Virus record (IMG/VR): IMGVR_UViG_3300049988_000124
Coordinates: 243,822-307,821 of that record
DNA length: 64,000 bases
Direction: 5' to 3' (one strand)
Origin: a virus
Lineage: Duplodnaviria > Caudoviricetes
The notes under the pieces were generated by a model that worked only from the letters and a program-made list of their open reading frames with translations, ran no database searches and was not told the origin of the DNA. The translations under genes were made by a program, and so were the position numbers. This document shows, piece after piece, positions 6,468-62,759 of the stretch (its first letter is position 1; each line of letters begins with the position of its first letter).

Positions 6468-7985
6468 TCAGTACGAACTAGTACAGTGAAAGATCTTCTG
6501 CAAGATCTGGCGAATCTCACCGATCTTGAACGGCTTCTTCAGAACCGTATATCCTTCAAGCTCTGCACTGTCAGAGAAACCAGTCACGAAGACCACTTCC
6601 AAATCAGGGTGAAGGAGCTTGGCTGAGCGGATGACCTGTGCTCCGTTCATAACGGGCATGGCGTAGTCAATGACGACCAGGTCAGGACGGTTGTCCTTCA
6701 GGTAGACCAATGCATCCATACCGTCGACCGCTGTCTTGACGTGGTGACCAAGAAGCGTCAAGATCTCCGAGAGCGTCTCCCGGACACCTGGATCATCGTC
6801 GACCAGGAGGATGTTCTTGGCCTCACACATCTGGATGAGATTACCGGCTACTACCTCTTCCTGGAAGATCGCTGCGTTCTTAACGACGGGCAGACTGATC
6901 GTGATCGTGGTACCCTTCTCCGACGTCTTCTTGATGTAGACATCGCCGCCTGACTGATTAGCCAGACCGTAAACCATGCTGAGACCAAGACCTGTTCCCT
7001 TACCAATATCCTTGGTAGTGAAGAACGGCTCAAAGACGCGCGCCGCAACATCGGCAGGAATACCAATACCGGTATCAGTGACGTTGATCTCAACCTCGTC
7101 ATTCTCGATGATCGTGGAGATCGTGAGACTACCGCCCTCGGGCATTGCGTCGCGAGCGTTGACCGCCAGGTTCAAGATAGCCAGTTCAAGCTGAACCGGA
7201 TCAGTGCGCACCACTACGTCGGTGATGTTGGAGGTGGAGATCTGAATGTCTGGACCGATGGTCCGGGTGATCAACTGCCTGACGTTCATGATGACCGGAG
7301 CCAGTTCCACTTCCTTGATCTGGAGCTTCTGGTTACGCGAGAACGTCAGGAGCTGTGCAGTCAGATGTGATGCTCTCGATATTGCCTCAATACCAACACC
7401 CACCCAGCGCGGTACACGGTCACTGTGGGGATTACTACTGATGAGCTCGAGGCTACCACTGATGGCTTGGACGAGATTGTTAAAGTCGTGCGCAATGCCG
7501 CCTGTTAACTGGCCCACTGCTTCCATCTTCTGTGACTGGAGCAGGTGAGTCTGTGCGCGCTCTTTCTCGTCCTTCTCGATCTTAAGCTCTTGGATCTTCT
7601 GCTCGAGCTGGCGATTAAGGGCATCAATCTTAGCAAAAGAAGGAAGCTTGATCGCTGTTGGAATAAGGAACCACAGACTACCCAAGGCTAGAATGGAGAG
7701 AAGTGAGGAAATGAGTTGCATGGTGGGTGAGGGTGAGTGGTTCTCCACGGTCATCCCAAAAACGGCCCAGGCTCTACCGAGCGCACAAACAGCATTTGAG
7801 ATCAGGAAGAACCAGATAAACTTGTTGTCGCGAAGGTCAGGGCGTTCCTTTAGAACCTTGGTCGACAACGTGGCATTAGTTGTGTGAAAAGCACCAGCGA
7901 AGAGATGGGTAAGAATGGAGGCAAGAACAGGCCAGGGATTCGGCCCGAAATACTGAACGGCTAATAGCCAAAAATCTGCGGACAC
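6468..7985 (-). CDS. membrane-bound hybrid sensor histidine kinase/response regulator
   Basis: H-box [11 protein letters not shown]-box [12 protein letters not shown]1 [14 protein letters not shown]2 GTGLGL; receiver with VDDD, IDYAMP, TG, KPF; N-terminal TM segments. Confidence 0.93.
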
Positions 7986-55887: not shown

Positions 55888-56157
55888 TTATGAGGGAAGG
55901 TTAATGTTCCAAATACTCGGGGTAGTGTTGTGAAAATCAGACAGTATTTCAGGATCAAGCTTCAGGGTGTCGAATACTTCGGGGCCTCCGCCGCGCTTCA
56001 CTACTTCATTGGTGGTGAGCTCAATAATGCGTCCCGACGGATCATGGCACCGCCACTTATAGCCGTACCAGAATGCGCCGGGATAGGAACATCGCTTCTG
56101 GATAAACGCGAATAGATTAACCGCGTCTTTCCAATAGTGCCTTGAGATAGTCATCGA
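55888..56157 (-). CDS. hypothetical protein
   Basis: ORF in the minus-strand run. Confidence 0.45.
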   Translation of the reverse strand, partial: SMTISRHYWKDAVNLFAFIQKRCSYPGAFWYGYKWRCHDPSGRIIELTTNEVVKRGGGPEVFDTLKLDPEILSDFHNTTPSIWNINLPS

Positions 56158-56353
56158 AAATACCTTTGGGTTTAGTCTTTGATTCAATGTAGACTTTTAG
56201 CGCGAAAGTGAAGTGCGCTTCTGTGGTCCAGGCGAGCATTAGAACAAGCCCTGCGATCACGAAGCCGTCGGGAGCAAGAGGACTAAGCTTTATCGCCGCA
56301 TAGATCTCTAAGCTCAAATAAACCAGCATAGGAATGAACCGAATAAAGGTCAT
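56117..56353 (-). CDS. small membrane protein
   Basis: GGAGG RBS before MTFIRF; two TM segments. Confidence 0.5.
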   Translation of the reverse strand: MTFIRFIPMLVYLSLEIYAAIKLSPLAPDGFVIAGLVLMLAWTTEAHFTFALKVYIESKTKPKGIFDDYLKALLERRG

Positions 56354-56438
56354 GGGAATACCTCCATAAAAACAAAAGACATAAAAGGAAGACAAGAGTG
56401 AGGCGTTTGCCCCACTCTTATATCCAAAAAGAAAATGT

Positions 56439-56514
56439 TGGTGAGTCCTCCGGGATTCGAACCCGGGACACGCGAATTAAAAGTCCGCTGCTCTACCTAC
56501 TGAGCTAAGGACCC
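56439..56514 (-). tRNA. tRNA-Lys(TTT)
   Basis: 76-nt cloverleaf, loop CT-TTT-AA, encoded CCA. Confidence 0.93.
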
Positions 56515-56651
56515 TCACACCATTAACCATATCGACATTGTAGAAACCATACGGTCGGCGTAACAATCGTTGGTAGGACTATTGTCCTTTTGCTTAAAGG
56601 GTCGGTCCAATTACCCTGTTCAAACAACCACTACAATATCGATAAAGGTAA

Positions 56652-56726
56652 TGGTGCCCCTTGTACGATTTGAACGCACGACCTTCGCTTTACAAAAGCG
56701 CTGCTCTACCGCTGAGCTAAAAGGGC
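56652..56726 (-). tRNA. tRNA-Thr(TGT)
   Basis: Cloverleaf, loop TT-TGT-AA, encoded CCA. Confidence 0.9.
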
Positions 56727-56739
56727 TAACCATTTTTGA

Positions 56740-56964
56740 CTACACACCGTTCTTGGGGTCTTGGGGTAGTGTGTCTAAACCATTGTAGAAAGGGACGGGT
56801 TCATGCTCATCGCCAACAGCAAAGATGGCGATGTCACCATCGACGATTTCGATCTGTGCCCGTCTATCCCACTTCATATGAATAAAGTCAGGCTTACCCC
56901 AGATACGAACAGCGGAGTGATATTCGTCTCCTCGAAAGCCGATAAAATGAACGATGGCTTTCAT
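56740..56964 (-). CDS. small hypothetical protein
   Basis: HFIGFRGDEY..A.RIWG.PDFIH..WD.RA pattern typical of small phage proteins. Confidence 0.6.
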   Translation of the reverse strand: MKAIVHFIGFRGDEYHSAVRIWGKPDFIHMKWDRRAQIEIVDGDIAIFAVGDEHEPVPFYNGLDTLPQDPKNGV

Positions 56965-56987
56965 GGTGGATTCCATGTTAGATAAAA

Positions 56988-57107
56988 CACCGTAGGTAGG
57001 ACTCGACAGCCTACTAACCCACTTCTTTCGGACAGTAGAGCATCTTTCATCTCATTTGCAGGCGGGTCTCCTGTTGTCCTAGCGTGTCCATCCACGCTGC
57101 TACGGTG
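56988..57107 (-). ncRNA. tRNA-like RNA with expanded anticodon domain (candidate)
   Basis: 8-bp closing stem CACCGTAG/CTACGGTG, D-like arm GCGT-GGATGGAC-ACGC, T-like arm GTAGG-CTGTCGAGT-CCTAC; no anticodon loop or CCA. Confidence 0.5.
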
Positions 57108-57217
57108 CTACTTCCTCGGGGGAGGAACTATGTATTCACTGTCAAGATTGCCAAAGCGCTCATAAGAGTCATTTAACCTCTATACCCCAAGCCATGAGGA
57201 AGAGAGATGGTTAAACG

Positions 57218-57444
57218 AAAGCGGACCTGCCGGGTGTGGTTACCCGGTCACGACTTTTCAGGCCCCATCAGAAGATCATTTCTGATATCCAATCGGCTAG
57301 GTTTGAGCCACGCCTGTCACCCGCTTTGACAATCTTGCTAGTGGATCTAAATCCCTACTGTGGCCGATGACGCACAAGCTGTGTCGGCATTTCACGTCTG
57401 TGTGCCCAACGGGACCGGGTTAGAGCCCAGCACACTCACAGTAG
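57218..57444 (-). ncRNA. structured two-domain ncRNA with H-type pseudoknot (candidate)
   Basis: Stems CTACTGTG/CACAGTAG and AAAGCGG/CCGCTTT enclose several hairpins; crossed GACG/CGTC and GCCGA/TCGGC helices; ORF-free. Confidence 0.55.
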
Positions 57445-57456
57445 AGAAGGACGTAT

Positions 57457-57684
57457 TCACATTCGTGTAAAGAAACTGCATCTAGGTCCAGCGGGTACGT
57501 GGTAGAACCGATCCCGCCACTGGTCATCGCCTTGTGCGAACTCACCTTTGTGACCATCGACTATGTACATGGGTACACCGTGATAGTCGACGATGTCGGT
57601 AATCTTACTCACGGATTTCTCATGGTCCGCGAAAGGCTTATGAATGCTGAGCTTGACAGGATCGCCAATCTTTAGCTTTGCCAC
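57457..57684 (-). CDS. small SH3/KOW-like hypothetical protein
   Basis: LKIGDPV start; GAGGA RBS. Confidence 0.55.
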   Translation of the reverse strand: MAKLKIGDPVKLSIHKPFADHEKSVSKITDIVDYHGVPMYIVDGHKGEFAQGDDQWRDRFYHVPAGPRCSFFTRM

Positions 57685-57685
57685 G

Positions 57686-57883
57686 TCAGTTCCTCACGAT
57701 TCGATTTTCATCGATCTCACTGAAGTCACTGTCGTCACGATCGAACTCGGTGTTACCGATAACAGCGATCCATCCCTTAGGAAAAGATGAACGACGCCAG
57801 AGAGCAATTGTCCACTGCTCCCCATCTCTCACCCAATAGAAACCAGGCTTTCTGGAGTTGGTTGCTTCCTCAAAAGTGGTCAT
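57686..57883 (-). CDS. small hypothetical protein (GFYWVR family, paralog 1)
   Basis: Start moved to MTTFEE; similar to 58362..58559. Confidence 0.6.
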   Translation of the reverse strand: MTTFEEATNSRKPGFYWVRDGEQWTIALWRRSSFPKGWIAVIGNTEFDRDDSDFSEIDENRIVRN

Positions 57884-57992
57884 GTGATTCTTTCGCAATA
57901 ACGACACCGTAGGGCCGTAGTGTGTTTGCAAGGGGACTACTATCTTCCTAAAAGGAAACGTATCCTTACGGTGCCGATAATGTAAAAGAGAA

Positions 57993-58069
57993 TGGAGCGA
58001 CGAGTCGGGATCGAACCGACGACCTAAAGATTTGCAATCTTCCGCAACTACCAACTGTGCTACCGCCGC
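57993..58069 (-). tRNA. tRNA-Cys(GCA)
   Basis: Cloverleaf, loop TT-GCA-AA, U73 discriminator, encoded CCA. Confidence 0.9.
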
Positions 58070-58088
58070 TCAAGTATAATGAAGCAAG

Positions 58089-58160
58089 CTCGAGTGACAG
58101 GATTCGAACCTGTGACCAAGGCATTAACAGTGCCCTACTCTACCGCTGAGCTACACTCGA
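58089..58160 (-). tRNA. tRNA-Asn(GTT), CCA not encoded
   Basis: Loop CT-GTT-AA, G73, canonical D and T arms. Confidence 0.85.
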
Positions 58161-58170
58161 GCTTGCTCCA

Positions 58171-58365
58171 CTACGGATTGATCCACTGGTTCAACGAATC
58201 AGCTGACCACAGAGGACGACGTCCCATCCAAATAGTCGGCTTTGGAAAAGGAGATAGCTCCCCGTTGATGTAAGCGAGAAGTGTTCCCATTCTCAGGCGT
58301 TCAAAAGAACTACGAGAAATAAGTAGCTTCTCACAAATGGCTTTGATTCCAAGGAGAGTAATCAT
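58171..58365 (-). CDS. AlpA/excisionase-like HTH protein
   Basis: LLGIKAICEKLLISRSSFERL...FPKP...GRRPLW....L.QWI. Confidence 0.7.
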   Translation of the reverse strand: MITLLGIKAICEKLLISRSSFERLRMGTLLAYINGELSPFPKPTIWMGRRPLWSADSLNQWINP

Positions 58366-58559
58366 GATGAATTCCTCACAATACGGAGTTCATCGATCTC
58401 TTGGAATTCATCGTCGTAGAAACGTTCATCGGTACTTGTTAGCATCCATCTCGATAGGCACGGAATACTATCACCGTGCCACTCAGCGATGACCCATTCG
58501 ACGGTATCCCTTACCCAGTAGAACCCGTTTTCTCTAACTGGCTTATCTGCTTGTTCCAT
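58362..58559 (-). CDS. small hypothetical protein (GFYWVR family, paralog 2)
   Basis: TAATG coupling with the upstream gene; GFYWVRD..W..A.W...EIDE.RIVRN shared with paralog 1. Confidence 0.6.
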   Translation of the reverse strand: MEQADKPVRENGFYWVRDTVEWVIAEWHGDSIPCLSRWMLTSTDERFYDDEFQEIDELRIVRNSS

Positions 58560-58849
58560 TATAGAACCTGCCAATCTTCAGCGAGAATATCAGATGTGCT
58601 AGGCACCCAAACAGCAACATCTTCATCCACAGTCTTTAGTGCAAAGTAAGCACGGTAAGGAATCATCTCACCCTCACCGAAATACTCTTTGGCTGCACCG
58701 GTCTGCACTGGGTAGGATGCTGCGGGAACCATGTAGGCGAACATGCCCTTACCGTTCCAGCCAGCACGTGTGATACGCTTGCCTTCTTTCAAAGCTCTAA
58801 GCGCTATTCCGAAGTCGAGCTGACTACTTAAAGAGATTTGCCTCCCCAT
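58559..58849 (-). CDS. DUF2829 / Tad2-family anti-defence nucleotide sponge
   Basis: FG.AL..LKEGKRITRAGWNGKGMF...W.PS.SDILAEDW. Confidence 0.85.
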   Translation of the reverse strand: MGRQISLSSQLDFGIALRALKEGKRITRAGWNGKGMFAYMVPAASYPVQTGAAKEYFGEGEMIPYRAYFALKTVDEDVAVWVPSTSDILAEDWQVL

Positions 58850-58878
58850 TACGACTCAACTCCTTTCATGAAAGAGAT

Positions 58879-58966
58879 TGGTGGGAAGAGCTGGATTCGA
58901 ACCAACGTTCACCATTACGTGAGCAGATTTACAGTCTGCCGCCTTCAGCCACTCGGCCACCTTCCC
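58879..58966 (-). tRNA. tRNA-Tyr(GTA)
   Basis: Loop CT-GTA-AA, long variable arm, A73, encoded CCA. Confidence 0.93.
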
Positions 58967-59039
58967 ACAATAAGGACCCCGTTTCTGTTGCTACGTACGG
59001 GCCTTTATTGCCCACGCCACCATAGGGAGTCGAACGCCC

Positions 59040-59450
59040 TAGGAATTTACTACGCCGTCATTGAGGTGAGTCGCTGACTAAGCGTAGCTGCCGTTAGGCA
59101 ACGAGACGGATGTCCATCTCATTGTCGTTGGCTGCGACTGCGGGGTTATTCGCATTCACTGTGGATGGCTTTTTGTCGACTAGGTTCCCCTGGTCCGTGG
59201 GCAGCCATGCCCGGTCGCGTATTCTCGCCACAACACACGTCGATCCTGGTTCAGACCCATCATAGCCACTGACTAGGGAAGATTAGATGTAAAGGCGATA
59301 ACCCTTCATCCTCTTATCGAGCCCAGGTGCTCTATCCTTTGCAAGAGCCAGTGACTATGGTGGATCTGGCCGGTACTGCCCCGGCGTCCGCTGCGCGCTT
59401 TGATATCCCGATTAATTTACGACCATTACCCTCTTGCGAGGATCTGTTTG
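59040..59450 (-). ncRNA. ssrA: circularly permuted two-piece tmRNA (alphaproteobacterial type); outer ends approximate
   Basis: Acceptor piece ends CCGGGGCAGTACCGG-CCAGATCC-A-CCA at 59358; coding piece starts GGGTCTGAACCAGGATCGAC at 59258; acceptor stem has the G3.U70 pair. Confidence 0.9.
59094..59132 (-). other. tmRNA tag reading frame (A)ANDNEMDIRLVA*
   Basis: GCC AAC GAC AAT resume context matches the ANDN start of alphaproteobacterial tags; TAA sits in a hairpin. Confidence 0.88.
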
Positions 59451-59459
59451 CCATCACTG

Positions 59460-59610
59460 GCGAGATGGATGCTGCACTCGCGGTATGGAGAAATTATCTC
59501 CTACTCTACCTTGAACGGTTCAACCGGGAAGGGTCGCTCAACGTCTAGGCGTGATCTATTAGTCATAAGCGTAATGCCTAATAAACCGACGATTACAGCA
59601 TCCATCTCGC
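59460..59610 (-). ncRNA. rod-closed structured ncRNA, module B (candidate)
   Basis: 15-bp perfect inverted repeat gcgagatggatgctg/cagcatccatctcgc, extended by further helices. Confidence 0.6.
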
Positions 59611-59636
59611 GATTGACGGATACGTCTTAATAGATA

Positions 59637-59806
59637 CTCACTGGCGATGAGGATGCTGTACTCAGCATGAGGCCGGAATCTCATTAACCTGCGCGGAGGG
59701 CGGCGGTCTCGACGCTAACAGGCTACTAACTCAAATGAACGGTTTTGGGTAACAGGGAGACCATCATTTAAGCTAAACTGAATACAACACCCACAACGCC
59801 AGTGAG
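59637..59806 (-). ncRNA. rod-closed structured ncRNA, module A (candidate)
   Basis: About 35-bp closing helix with G.U pairs only on the minus strand; internal GGTCTC/GAGACC stem; ORF-free. Confidence 0.6.
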
Positions 59807-59886
59807 CGAGGAACTAGCACAAGTGAGAGGTAACACACCGGTTGTGCTATAACACATTGGGATCAGGGGTTATTTTTTCTGTTTAT

Positions 59887-60114
59887 TCACCAAGGCCGAC
59901 CCAGGATCATACCACCAGGATTAAAGGCAATGATCATTGGTTGTCCTTGTCCCTCGATGAATTGACGCTGTGCTTCATGTCGTTCGTTTAACAGCTGAAC
60001 GGTGAGCGTAGCAGCACTGTCGTCGTTTGCGGTGAGGATCGGAGAACTCTGGGTCTTACCGTAGATCCGGTTCCCCAAAGAGGTCAAGGGAAAGTCTTGA
60101 GATGTCAGTGCCAT
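59887..60114 (-). CDS. small hypothetical protein
   Basis: AAGGA RBS. Confidence 0.55.
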   Translation of the reverse strand: MALTSQDFPLTSLGNRIYGKTQSSPILTANDDSAATLTVQLLNERHEAQRQFIEGQGQPMIIAFNPGGMILGRPW

Positions 60115-60646
60115 GGGAATGATCCTTGCTTTCTGACTGTAACCAGCCGCTTACGGTGAAGAGCTGGAGAAGGTAGATCACGTTGTTGACGACGTTACAG
60201 AGACTGACCTGTTCGCCATAAACGGTAACCACACCCAGATATCCGTACCAGGTGGAGACTGTTGTGAAAAAAGCAGCGGCGTAGAGGATGGTTAACTTAC
60301 CCATCCACCGGTAGTGGTGGGTTCCCCACATGATCCCACTCAAGGCAAAGAAGAACAGGTCAGAGAGATAGAGCCACTTCATTGCTCCTACCACAATACC
60401 CATAGATCCCATCACCCAAGTGGTGGCATTAATGCACCAGAAGACAATCATGACTCCGGCTGCAATCATGCGCCACCAATTACTATCTTCCGCGTCCTCG
60501 TCGCTGTTTAGACATCGAATAAGTGTATAGAGGAAAACCAACGAGGTCAAGACACCCCAGAACAACAGCTGACCCATTGGTGAGATGATGAACTCGCCAA
60601 GGTAGGTGAGAATGCCTACCCACAGATTGAATGTGGGACTAGACAT
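60056..60646 (-). CDS. multi-pass membrane protein
   Basis: About five hydrophobic segments. Confidence 0.6.
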   Translation of the reverse strand: MSSPTFNLWVGILTYLGEFIISPMGQLLFWGVLTSLVFLYTLIRCLNSDEDAEDSNWWRMIAAGVMIVFWCINATTWVMGSMGIVVGAMKWLYLSDLFFFALSGIMWGTHHYRWMGKLTILYAAAFFTTVSTWYGYLGVVTVYGEQVSLCNVVNNVIYLLQLFTVSGWLQSESKDHSHGTDISRLSLDLFGEPDLR

Positions 60647-60736
60647 TAGTTGCTAGGAGGAGGAGGGGTTGAGGTGTCTACACCGGGTTGTACGGGGACA
60701 CCACCGCCGTAGAGGACGACGGGTTCTTGGTTGTGA

Positions 60737-60994
60737 TCAACTGGCTCCGGGGCGGGCGGGGTACCGCCCATCAACCACAAGAGATAGAGGAGAAAATAGT
60801 CCATCTGATTGTTTCCTTGTCAGATCAAGTTGACCAGATCTATGGTCATAGCTTGAACAAAGGAAATGTTCGCAATAAATGTCAGTTATTAACCAAAGTC
60901 GCTCGGTCCAATGTCCTGGGTTGCCAGCGTACCCGACCAAGAGCTTGCGTTCTGATGTCTTCGTTACCGGGGTAGTTAGCACTAAATAGGACAT
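60737..60994 (-). CDS. hypothetical protein
   Basis: ORF in the minus-strand run; overlaps the upstream gene, start uncertain. Confidence 0.35.
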   Translation of the reverse strand: MSYLVLTTPVTKTSERKLLVGYAGNPGHWTERLWLITDIYCEHFLCSSYDHRSGQLDLTRKQSDGLFSPLSLVVDGRYPARPGAS

Positions 60995-61190
60995 TGGTGG
61001 GGTGGTGAGTAGCCCAACCCATTACGAATGAATTACCAACGATAACGGCGATAGCATTCTCGTCTTGGTCTAGGTGATTAAGGATACCACCCACCGCTTT
61101 ACTACTTGAAAGAACAGTGAAAATTTCGCCACCCAATAGCTTCTGAATGGGTTCGGCTTCTTCTTTCGTTGAGAAGATAAGAGTACGCAT
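60882..61190 (-). CDS. stand-alone helicase C-terminal (RecA2)-like domain protein
   Basis: GW at motif V position and QALGRV resembling SF2 motif VI; GAAAGG RBS. Confidence 0.4.
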   Translation of the reverse strand: MRTLIFSTKEEAEPIQKLLGGEIFTVLSSSKAVGGILNHLDQDENAIAVIVGNSFVMGWATHHPTNVLFSANYPGNEDIRTQALGRVRWQPRTLDRATLVNN

Positions 61191-61250: not shown

Positions 61251-62759
61251 TTATGCTGTTGCTGTGTACTTGTTGTGTCCACGCCAATAGTGAGCGTTTT
61301 GACGAACTTCCTCGAAGACCGGAGGGTTAACCAACACCCCGTGCTCGAAGATAACCTGGAGGTAGTCCTGCTCACCTTCCAGTAGCTCGTGCTCTTGGAT
61401 GGTAACGAAGTCGACGTACGGATCGGGGAAGTGGTTAATCTCACGACGCACAACGGCGAAGCGACCACCCTTTGATGCCTTAGTCGGATCGGTCTTGACT
61501 TCCTTCCTGATCGACCTTGCACTACCGTTGATGACGACCTCAGATGCCTTCATGGCAAAGCGGTGAGTGTCCCGCTCCACATCGTGTTGCATGAGGCCCC
61601 CACCTGAGCCAAAGGCGATGTTGTCGACCGACCACTTGTGGTAGACAACACGCTGAAGGATACGACGGAGACTCTCCTCGTTGATCCCATCGCCTTGAAT
61701 AAGACCCACGAACTCGGGGAGCACTCGGAAACCCTTCTCATTCACCGTACTACCGACCAGACTCTCGATGAGGTCAAGAAGGTGGACGACGTTGATAACC
61801 GGGTCACCAGAGTCCGGACGCAGGATGATCTTGATGTTGGAGGCAATGAGCTTTTCCAACAGACCACAACCACCCTTATCCGCCGGTGTCATCCACATGT
61901 GAACAGCTTCATCCTGATCGTAAGTGTCGATCACGACCGAGACAGGGTAGCGACCCCCCAGAGGATTGATCTCGTCCTTGAACTGCTCAATCACATGCTC
62001 GTAGAACGCTTGTTCATTCTCACGGCCCCAGGATGTGGTGACCGAATGCTCAGACGCTGGAATCGAGAAGCCGAGCATGGCTTCGGTTCGGTAGGTGTGC
62101 TGACCAAAGGTAATGCCAAGGAGATTGTCGGTCACCTGGAAGTTCACCAAGTGCGCCATACCGGACACTCCTGCATCCTCGGTGACCCGGCAACCACGTG
62201 CGGAGAAGTCAACGACCTTGAACTCAGCAGTGCCCTCAGTCCCGGAGATCTGAAGATACTCCTCAAGCAGCGACCACCAGCGCATCCCACGGGTTGCAAT
62301 CGTAGTCGGCATCCAGACGCGCATGAGCATGGTCTCGATCGTGATGCACAGACCTGCCACATCCTCGTCGAGTGACTCGATGACACAGGCAACACAACCC
62401 TGTGGGATTACTGTTCCCTCAGCAATCTGCTTGATGCGAATCGGTAGCCTTCCGTCGTAACGATCGCGCACGATCTCAGCACCCACTCGGTCGAAGGGAA
62501 TACCGTGTAGCGGAAAGAACTTGGCAGCATGCTCAATGAACGCCGTCGTCCAGCGCTGGGTCAGGAAGTAACGCAGCGTGTAGACGTTACCGAACCACAT
62601 GATCTCACTAAAGCCGCCGCCCTTGCGAGCCTCGATATACCCGTACTCGGAGGTGAGCATGGGGTGTTCGAATTTCCAATGTGATCCCTTGTAGGTGTCC
62701 TTGTTCAAGATAGGCTGGGTGAGGAGCTCACCGATGGTATCAAAGAATTCCATGGTCAT
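61251..62759 (-). CDS. nadV: nicotinamide phosphoribosyltransferase (NAMPT/NadV)
   Basis: DTYKGSH, DFSARG, IPASEHS..TSWG, SVVIDTYD, RPDSGDP, IQGDGIN, FGSGGGL, K..KTDP.K.SK.GR. Confidence 0.93.
   Translation of the reverse strand: MTMEFFDTIGELLTQPILNKDTYKGSHWKFEHPMLTSEYGYIEARKGGGFSEIMWFGNVYTLRYFLTQRWTTAFIEHAAKFFPLHGIPFDRVGAEIVRDRYDGRLPIRIKQIAEGTVIPQGCVACVIESLDEDVAGLCITIETMLMRVWMPTTIATRGMRWWSLLEEYLQISGTEGTAEFKVVDFSARGCRVTEDAGVSGMAHLVNFQVTDNLLGITFGQHTYRTEAMLGFSIPASEHSVTTSWGRENEQAFYEHVIEQFKDEINPLGGRYPVSVVIDTYDQDEAVHMWMTPADKGGCGLLEKLIASNIKIILRPDSGDPVINVVHLLDLIESLVGSTVNEKGFRVLPEFVGLIQGDGINEESLRRILQRVVYHKWSVDNIAFGSGGGLMQHDVERDTHRFAMKASEVVINGSARSIRKEVKTDPTKASKGGRFAVVRREINHFPDPYVDFVTIQEHELLEGEQDYLQVIFEHGVLVNPPVFEEVRQNAHYWRGHNKYTATA

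Follow-up and report, generated by a model that had tools for sequence, protein, structure and literature searches.

The stretch of DNA analysed here (64 kb, referred to as the window) forms the 3' end of a 307,821-bp IMG/VR virus record. The record encodes a phiKZ-type multisubunit RNA polymerase in split genes, and its source is a phiKZ-like jumbo phage with a genome of ~308 kb. At 56.4-59.8 kb of the window, the minus strand carries an RNA island composed of a tmRNA, five tRNAs and other folded RNAs. The order of the island along the minus strand and the features next to the RNA described here are as follows.

Minus strand, first part: two stem-closed cassettes, then a permuted two-piece tmRNA and tRNA-Tyr
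Minus strand, second part: a Tad2-like gene, small ORFs, tRNA-Asn, tRNA-Cys and two small ORFs
Minus strand, third part: an ORF-free gap (~480-501 nt), ORF78, tRNA-Thr, tRNA-Lys and a strong terminator
57352-57448, minus strand: M1, a stem-closed module of the gap
57136-57346, minus strand: M2, the folded-RNA neighbour of the candidate RNA, with a 16-bp closing helix of GCAAGATTGTCAAAGCG with CGCTTTGGCAATCTTG (z -5.7)
57112-57127, minus strand: small hairpin TTCCTC-CCCC-GAGGAA, 4 nt upstream of the candidate RNA (z -3.9)
56740-56976, minus strand: ORF78, the downstream gene, coding by codon usage

The ORF-free gap is strongly structured (z -4.8) and consists of a row of stem-closed modules. 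Its final 120 nt, which lie on the same strand as the tRNAs and ~2 kb from the phage tmRNA, form the candidate RNA. The ATG of ORF78 is located 12 nt past the candidate RNA and has no Shine-Dalgarno sequence, tRNA-Thr starts 13 nt beyond the ORF78 stop, and each ORF of the island is bracketed by tRNA genes or by the candidate module. A sigma-70 promoter considered at 57127-57154 was rejected, as the supposed hexamers belong to the closing helix of M2 (16 bp), of which they form the 3' strand. The phage also displays a promoter-like motif (TCA, ~14 nt, then CGM-TATATTAC-YNANGTGA), which resembles the core of phiKZ early promoters. Exact TATATTAC sites occur 24 times genome-wide, all on the minus strand and mostly intergenic; those in the window are found at 2294, 2351, 17125, 20828, 24315, 31367, 45482, 52186 and 55517, with the other 15 elsewhere in the genome. 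No promoter of this class is present within the RNA island (56000-61000).

Homologues of ORF78 were found in Sphingomonas, Sphingobium and a viral contig, and the tmRNA is of the alphaproteobacterial type. Because of these two similarities we take the host to be probably a sphingomonad, and the enzymes presumed to act on the island are those expected of such a host. The Tad2-like (Thoeris anti-defence 2) gene of the island (58559-58849, minus) is flanked by tRNA-Tyr and tRNA-Asn, and just upstream of the island there is a gene for nicotinamide phosphoribosyltransferase (61251-62759, minus); the region has the appearance of a block with counter-defence and accessory functions. Two paralogous small ORFs (GFYWVRD...W.IA.W...EIDE.RIVRN; 57686-57880 and 58362-58574, minus) are interleaved with the tRNAs. 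The tRNA-Asn gene (58088-58160, minus) has GCTT in place of CCA, seven other tRNAs that were checked encode CCA, and no CCA-adding enzyme was found among the phage genes. At least one phage tRNA therefore relies on host 3' processing and CCA addition.

A preliminary description, made from the letters of the sequence, had pointed out a tRNA-shaped RNA at 56988-57107 on the minus strand, with its anticodon loop replaced by a structured insert. All helices listed in that description are present and the region is non-coding. The only ORF on the same strand, of 44 codons, was rejected as protein-coding by the codon usage of the phage itself, with a score of -0.35 per codon compared to +0.53 +/- 0.25 for real genes and +0.33 to +0.47 for neighbouring small genes. 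The parts of the candidate RNA are the following.

56988-57107, minus strand: whole tRNA-shaped RNA of 120 nt, with +1 at 57106, -1 at 57107 and the discriminator G73 at 56988
57100-57106, minus strand: 5' strand of the acceptor stem, ACCGTAG, 7/7 Watson-Crick with 56989-56995, pairing probability ~1
57082-57097, minus strand: D arm with a 4-bp stem GCGT/ACGC (G10:C25, C11:G24) and an 8-nt loop GGATGGAC, G18G19 at 57089-57088
57015-57080, minus strand: bottom-half domain of 66 nt that replaces anticodon arm and variable region, with three folds within ~6 kcal/mol
56996-57014, minus strand: T arm GTAGG-CTGTCGAGT-CCTAC, abutting the terminal helix (acceptor)
56989-56995, minus strand: 3' strand of the acceptor stem, CTACGGT, abutting the T stem directly so that 7+5 pairs give a 12-bp coaxial stack
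56982-56987, minus strand: U-rich 3' trailer TTTTAT at the position of CCA

The C at 57107 can form an eighth acceptor pair with G73. The terminal helix CACCGTAG/CTACGGTG comprises 8 bp, or 10 bp counting an outer G.U and an A-U pair. C8 and A9 (57099-57098) make up the connector to the D arm, the stem of which can be extended to 6 bp (D-like hairpin AGCGTG-GATGGA-CACGCT). The geometry of the D arm (19 nt) is identical to that of the D arm of the phage tRNA-Lys. The T arm is in register with the 3' strand and shows G53:C61, U55, C56, G57, A58 and U60; it departs from a canonical T loop by a G at T54 and by two extra nucleotides (CT) on the 5' side, which give a 9-nt loop. Besides T54, the invariants U8, A14 and A21 are replaced by C8, G14 and C21, respectively. 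The bottom-half domain contains GGACA/TGTCC (57075-57079 / 57030-57034), a robust hairpin CAGG-AGACCCG-CCTG, GAGATGAAAGATGCTC and GAAAGAAGTGGGTTA, and a GAGAT/ATGCTC pairing that is present but imperfect. A variable stretch of 15 nt separates the inner stem from the T arm. The sole 7-nt loop is AGACCCG and an anticodon loop is absent; since the 66-nt domain stands in place of the anticodon arm, the RNA cannot decode. The 3' end carries no CCA, as had been noted, and the run of U that follows in the trailer has only 4 U.

To compare the T arm with chance, we scored hairpins with a weight matrix made from the T arms of 89 tRNAs encoded at other viral loci, with those of the phage itself left out. 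Under a scoring rule that skips position 54 and the 2-nt insertion, and that was fixed after the candidate had been seen, the candidate T arm reached 18.4 bits. This places it second among 3,006 genomic hairpins with stems of 5 bp and loops of 7-9 nt, which have a mean score of -18.9 bits (sd 10.1), or third if one G.U stem pair is permitted. All other hairpins with at least 16 bits are T arms of annotated or split tRNAs, and the best non-tRNA hairpin reached 14.8 bits. The test uses sequence positions that are ignored by a second measure, a cloverleaf descriptor of perfect Watson-Crick helices. It requires an acceptor of 7 bp or more, a D stem of 4 bp or more, an inner stem of 5 bp or more around 7-60 nt, 3-21 nt of variable region and, directly adjoining the acceptor, a T stem of 5 bp closed by a loop of 7-9 nt. 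The descriptor revealed two matches in the 308-kb genome, the candidate and one inside a coding ORF, compared to a mean of 0.045 matches in 22 random genomes of equal size, a figure that is generous because the ranges were set post hoc with the candidate in view. Evidence from the D arm is weaker: its matrix score of -2.6 bits exceeds that of 94% of 3,430 matched hairpins but stays below real tRNAs, whose first percentile is 3.9 bits. The geometry of acceptor, T arm and D arm together with the T-loop invariants is tRNA-like well beyond chance.

The closest tRNA in hand is 61% identical to the candidate (48/79 scaffold positions). All 21-24 stem pairs are nevertheless Watson-Crick, despite five changed invariant single positions. 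Intact helices at such low identity to the tRNAs compared suggest selection on the helices and the shape of the RNA and not free decay. From its sequence, the candidate is apparently a tRNA-derived RNA that has kept the top half (acceptor stem, T arm and D arm) and lost the decoding half.

Standard detectors did not report this RNA, as the preliminary description had expected. ARAGORN made no call on it, also when introns were permitted and its thresholds reduced to 80%, and a search of 151 nt against Rfam 15 revealed no tRNA, tRNA-Sec, tmRNA, YrlA, riboswitch or other match even at E<=10. With the tRNA model RF00005 the candidate scored below ~10 bits, the threshold being 29. The part of the earlier interpretation that sees a tRNA mimic stands insofar as the RNA is tRNA-shaped and apparently tRNA-derived; the specific roles offered with it do not. 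A decoy for anticodon nucleases is unsupported because the part that these enzymes recognise, the anticodon loop, is missing: no 5-bp stem with a 7-nt anticodon loop exists, U33 and R37 are absent from every candidate loop, and a decoding tRNA is rejected on the same grounds. A Y RNA or YrlA-like module finds no partner either, as TROVE and DUF2828 (Ro60-type) domains are absent from the phage and TROVE was above cut-off in only 1 of 61 sampled Sphingomonadaceae. The missing CCA is not disqualifying in itself, because the tRNA-Asn of the same island likewise has no encoded CCA.

A decoding tRNA with a spliced 40-nt insert, or a tRNA-Sec or suppressor tRNA, is close to refuted. Such a tRNA could account for an insert in the anticodon region, for the long variable region and for a possible 8-bp acceptor with a 6-bp D stem. 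However, the RNA has no loop with U33 and R37 and no UCA anywhere, the intron mode of ARAGORN and the tRNA and tRNA-Sec models of Rfam were negative, and the insert falls far short of the size of a group I intron and matches no Rfam intron. The phage genome furthermore contains no tRNA splicing endonuclease (tRNA_int_endo), RtcB or RNA ligase (RNA_ligase).

Folding calculations gave a mixed picture for the individual helices. Base-pair probabilities are ~1.0 for the terminal helix and the D hairpin and 0.8 for CAGG/CCTG; the GGACA/TGTCC stem and the T hairpin of the preliminary description, both present in the sequence, have probabilities of ~0 and 0.05. In the minimum-energy fold (-40.9 kcal/mol) AGGAC pairs with GTCCT and a long hairpin replaces the T arm. 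The cloverleaf drawn originally has -34.6 kcal/mol; forcing acceptor and T arm gives -35.5 kcal/mol at best, with the middle in a third arrangement. The genuine tRNA-Asn of the island is also misfolded by RNAfold. The z-score of 56986-57109 is -3.26 (1/150 shuffles), compared to ~-2.1 for the real tRNAs of the island; the folding energy lies only in the 12-13th percentile among 9,151 random genomic 120-nt windows.

A rival explanation is that the candidate is not related to tRNAs and forms one more stem-closed cassette, comparable to 57136-57346 and the two cassettes before the tmRNA, that adopts its minimum-energy fold and resembles a T arm by accident. In favour of this, the minimum-energy fold surpasses every fold with a T arm by 5-6 kcal/mol, and the surrounding gap itself consists of such modules in a row. 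A 13-nt word, GTTAGTAGSCTGT, is common to the candidate and the first cassette before the tmRNA, cassette A (57006-57018 and 59718-59730, minus); these are its only two occurrences in the window and both are followed by TCGAG-N-CC. We nevertheless consider this explanation rather improbable. A T arm of 18.4 bits is equalled by 0 of ~3,000 non-tRNA hairpins, the sharing of GTTAGTAGSCTGT does not reach significance when the whole island is the background (p 0.28), and its structural contexts differ between the two RNAs. RNase III, which may act on the longer cassettes of the island, needs a longer helix than the 9-bp closing helix available here. Paralogy of the candidate with the tmRNA-leader cassettes was likewise rejected, as the words they have in common are not significant.

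Searches for homologues revealed no second copy of the candidate RNA. In a blastn search of 56977-57450 against 50,697 GenBank phage records only chance matches were obtained, and tblastn of the neighbouring 565-aa protein against GenBank phages led to no homologue of the candidate. Scans of IMG/VR with ORF78, the 565-aa protein, RNAP beta and ORF75 gave no homologous RNA: two contigs from the scan with the 565-aa protein share only the downstream core with the phage, and the viral contig with an ORF78 homologue has no such RNA upstream of it. A metagenome scan found a 243-kb contig with 61% identity, which contains no island within 6 kb. The nearest phage relatives share neighbouring core genes at 36-61% protein identity (57-61% for the 565-aa protein) and the whole island is missing from them.

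Pattern searches gave the same result. The exact 17-mer of the T arm has one chance match, inside a gene; the tmRNA pattern found 119 loci, with no nhmmer, blastn or covariance-model match to the candidate, and the closing-helix pattern of the cassettes found 66 chance loci. Model R1 detected only 12-bit matches with broken stems in 17 whole viral records, and three matches of 22-25 bits, a number that chance predicts, with mismatched stems or a deleted D arm in 151 Sphingomonadaceae genomes. No paralogue is present in the phage's own genome. The candidate RNA rests on one sequence, with no homologue in any searched collection. The covarying homologues that the preliminary description had proposed to look for in related phages were thus not found in these searches.

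A single sequence with several lost invariants is also compatible with a decaying tRNA pseudogene, the anticodon arm of which was destroyed by an insertion or rearrangement and which, no longer in use, is merely carried in a spacer. This is the degenerate tRNA of the preliminary description and it is still a live rival, though we regard it as unlikely. U8, A14, A21 and T54 are lost, the T loop is expanded, anticodon loop and CCA are missing and no homologues were found; tRNA genes do get disrupted in this phage, because another one is broken by an inserted cassette of an HNH ORF and a tRNA-Leu. Against decay, the four helices contain no mismatches or G.U pairs although the closest tRNA is only 61% identical, and the insert is itself folded (z -3.26). 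In addition, phage genomes seldom keep 120 nt of dead sequence.

The position of the candidate in front of ORF78 could be explained by a cis-regulatory leader of this gene, either a riboswitch or an attenuator. Only 12 nt separate the RNA from the start codon, a short U run comes after the RNA, and a downstream hairpin is able to sequester both ATGs. We consider a leader very unlikely: no such element precedes the ORF78 homologues of the viral contig and of four bacterial genomes, Rfam revealed no riboswitch, and the U run consists of only 4 U.

Tentatively, we favour the view that the candidate is a tRNA-derived, t-element-like module that would be cut by tRNA-processing enzymes to release a stable RNA together with the downstream mRNA, and we put its chance of being correct a little short of even. 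Only 12 nt lie between the module and ORF78, a gene with no Shine-Dalgarno sequence, another 13 nt separate the end of ORF78 from tRNA-Thr, and the island contains no TATATTAC promoter; it is because of this arrangement that we prefer a role in processing, and the missing promoter fits the processing of a precursor. The parts that the candidate has kept, the 12-bp stack of acceptor and T stem and the elbow of D loop and T loop, are those recognised by RNase P, by the enzymes of 3' processing and by the CCA-adding enzyme; the anticodon half, which it has lost, is ignored by these enzymes. A perfect 7-bp acceptor abutting the T stem and a D arm of canonical length with G18G19 speak for a processing module, as do a T-arm score found among true tRNAs only and a z-score of -3.26, beyond that of the island tRNAs. 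On the other side, the thermodynamic model disfavours the T arm by ~5 kcal/mol and predicts an energy that is ordinary among genome windows, and with no homologue there is no sign of conservation. The changed U8, A14, A21 and T54 and the 9-nt T loop could weaken the elbow and its recognition by RNase P.

In the proposed sequence of events, the island would be transcribed as long precursors. RNase P would cut at the 5' end of the module (57106/57107), and a 3' endonuclease would cut the U-rich trailer just after G73. At a guess this is most likely RNase E, which we propose because a search for a canonical RNase Z in the likely host family came out negative (no RNase Z equivalog above cut-off in 31 sampled Sphingomonadaceae). 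A stable RNA of ~120 nt would be released, which a host enzyme may extend with CCA. The same cuts would split the upstream folded RNAs from the ORF78 message and leave the latter with a leader of ~12 nt and no Shine-Dalgarno sequence. The mode of action would be that of plant mitochondrial t-elements or tRNA punctuation, and the released RNA would correspond to the small stable RNAs encoded in the tRNA cluster of T4.

The released RNA might instead be what matters, acting in trans as a mimic of the tRNA top half that titrates a host or defence protein reading tRNA elbows or acceptor ends, with the 66-nt domain as a handle. The top half is intact, the island carries the Tad2-like anti-defence gene with the nicotinamide phosphoribosyltransferase gene just upstream, and its tRNAs (Lys-UUU, Thr, Asn, Tyr) are of kinds that tRNA-cutting defences attack. 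We consider such a mimic improbable. Its partner protein is purely putative and no conservation was seen; without an anticodon loop the RNA is no decoy for anticodon nucleases, and the phage has no Ro60-like gene. Equally improbable is the more general idea that giant phages make a class of anticodon-less top-half RNAs, matured by host tRNA enzymes and acting in trans, of which the candidate would be a lone and highly diverged member.

Other tRNA-like features were observed in the course of this analysis. In the same phage record, outside the window, a tRNA gene is split in its anticodon region (7290-7969 of the record, minus): the 5' half starts with GCCCCCG at 7969, and the 3' half (7290-7325) has a perfect T arm, CGGGGGC and ACCA. 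A tRNA-Leu(UAA) and an HNH-like ORF lie between the halves, a ~22-nt repeat is found at both junctions, and Rfam revealed no group I intron there. Within the window, a second T-arm-like hairpin, TAGGG-CGTTCGACT-CCCTA (59023-59041, minus), with a 9-nt loop and 10.9 bits, is located just 3' of the tmRNA tag stop and is followed by TGGTGGC, which has a 6/7 partner ~117 nt upstream. Two unrelated viral contigs contain homologous tRNA-shaped RNAs of 74 nt (L133:6378-6452 and L154:4017-4091, both minus) with CACC...GGTG acceptor ends, a canonical T arm and an 'anticodon arm' formed by a 6-bp stem with a GCU triloop. They show compensatory changes in three helices and are missed by ARAGORN and Rfam; the L133 copy adjoins an odd tRNA-like gene. 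The candidate was rejected as a member of this family, as the covariance model R2, built from its two members, misses it and scores the real tRNAs of the island at 13-16 bits.

If the module is real, tRNA clusters of giant phages would also carry tRNA-derived modules that are invisible to standard finders, and such modules would punctuate long transcripts or yield stable tRNA look-alikes. The candidate offers a testable example for the processing of mixed RNA and protein islands in jumbo phages and for the purpose of small RNAs in phage tRNA clusters such as T4 RNAC and RNAD. The T-arm weight matrix combined with an abutting 7-bp acceptor helix, with any content in between, would be a simple detector for other genomes.

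Compared to a canonical tRNA (RF00005), the candidate shares a 7-bp acceptor, the discriminator, a 2-nt connector, a 4-bp D stem with G18G19, and a 5-bp T stem stacked on the acceptor with G53:C61 and U55-C56-R57-A58. It differs by the absence of an anticodon loop, by the changes at U8, A14, A21 and T54, by the 9-nt T loop and the 15-nt variable stretch, and by the absence of CCA. The tRNA-like domain of tmRNA similarly combines a tRNA top half with a larger domain in place of the anticodon arm. However, the candidate has C3:G70 instead of G3:U70, lacks CCA, carries no reading frame for a tag and is matched by no tmRNA model, and a tmRNA-like RNA was rejected for these reasons. YrlA and the bacterial Y RNAs, which act with Ro60 or Rsr, are also tRNA-mimicking non-coding RNAs, and their type is found in phages as well. 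In YrlA the two ends of the RNA are part of the Ro-binding stem and a loop closes the acceptor mimic, whereas in the candidate the RNA ends form the acceptor; a Ro60-like gene is absent from the phage and hardly present in the sampled sphingomonads.

The small RNAs RNAC and RNAD come from the tRNA region of T4 and their roles are unexplained (PMC3014915, PMC9697503). Like the candidate, they are small non-coding RNAs inside a phage tRNA gene cluster; compared by sequence only, they show no similarity to it by blastn (50,697 phage records, assumed to include T4). Plant mitochondrial t-elements have a conserved T arm within a non-canonical cloverleaf and direct cuts by RNase Z and RNase P at mRNA ends (Forner et al. 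2007, PMC1920247). The candidate differs from them in that it belongs to a bacterial phage and not to an organelle, has 120 nt with a 66-nt domain for the anticodon arm and a 9-nt T loop, and is found with a likely host family that shows no canonical RNase Z. Both are non-canonical cloverleafs with a well-kept T arm that do not decode and that adjoin an mRNA end, the candidate having a T arm of 18.4 bits and ending 12 nt before the ORF78 start, and cutting by the enzymes that process tRNA 5' and 3' ends, the mode described for t-elements, is what we propose for the candidate.
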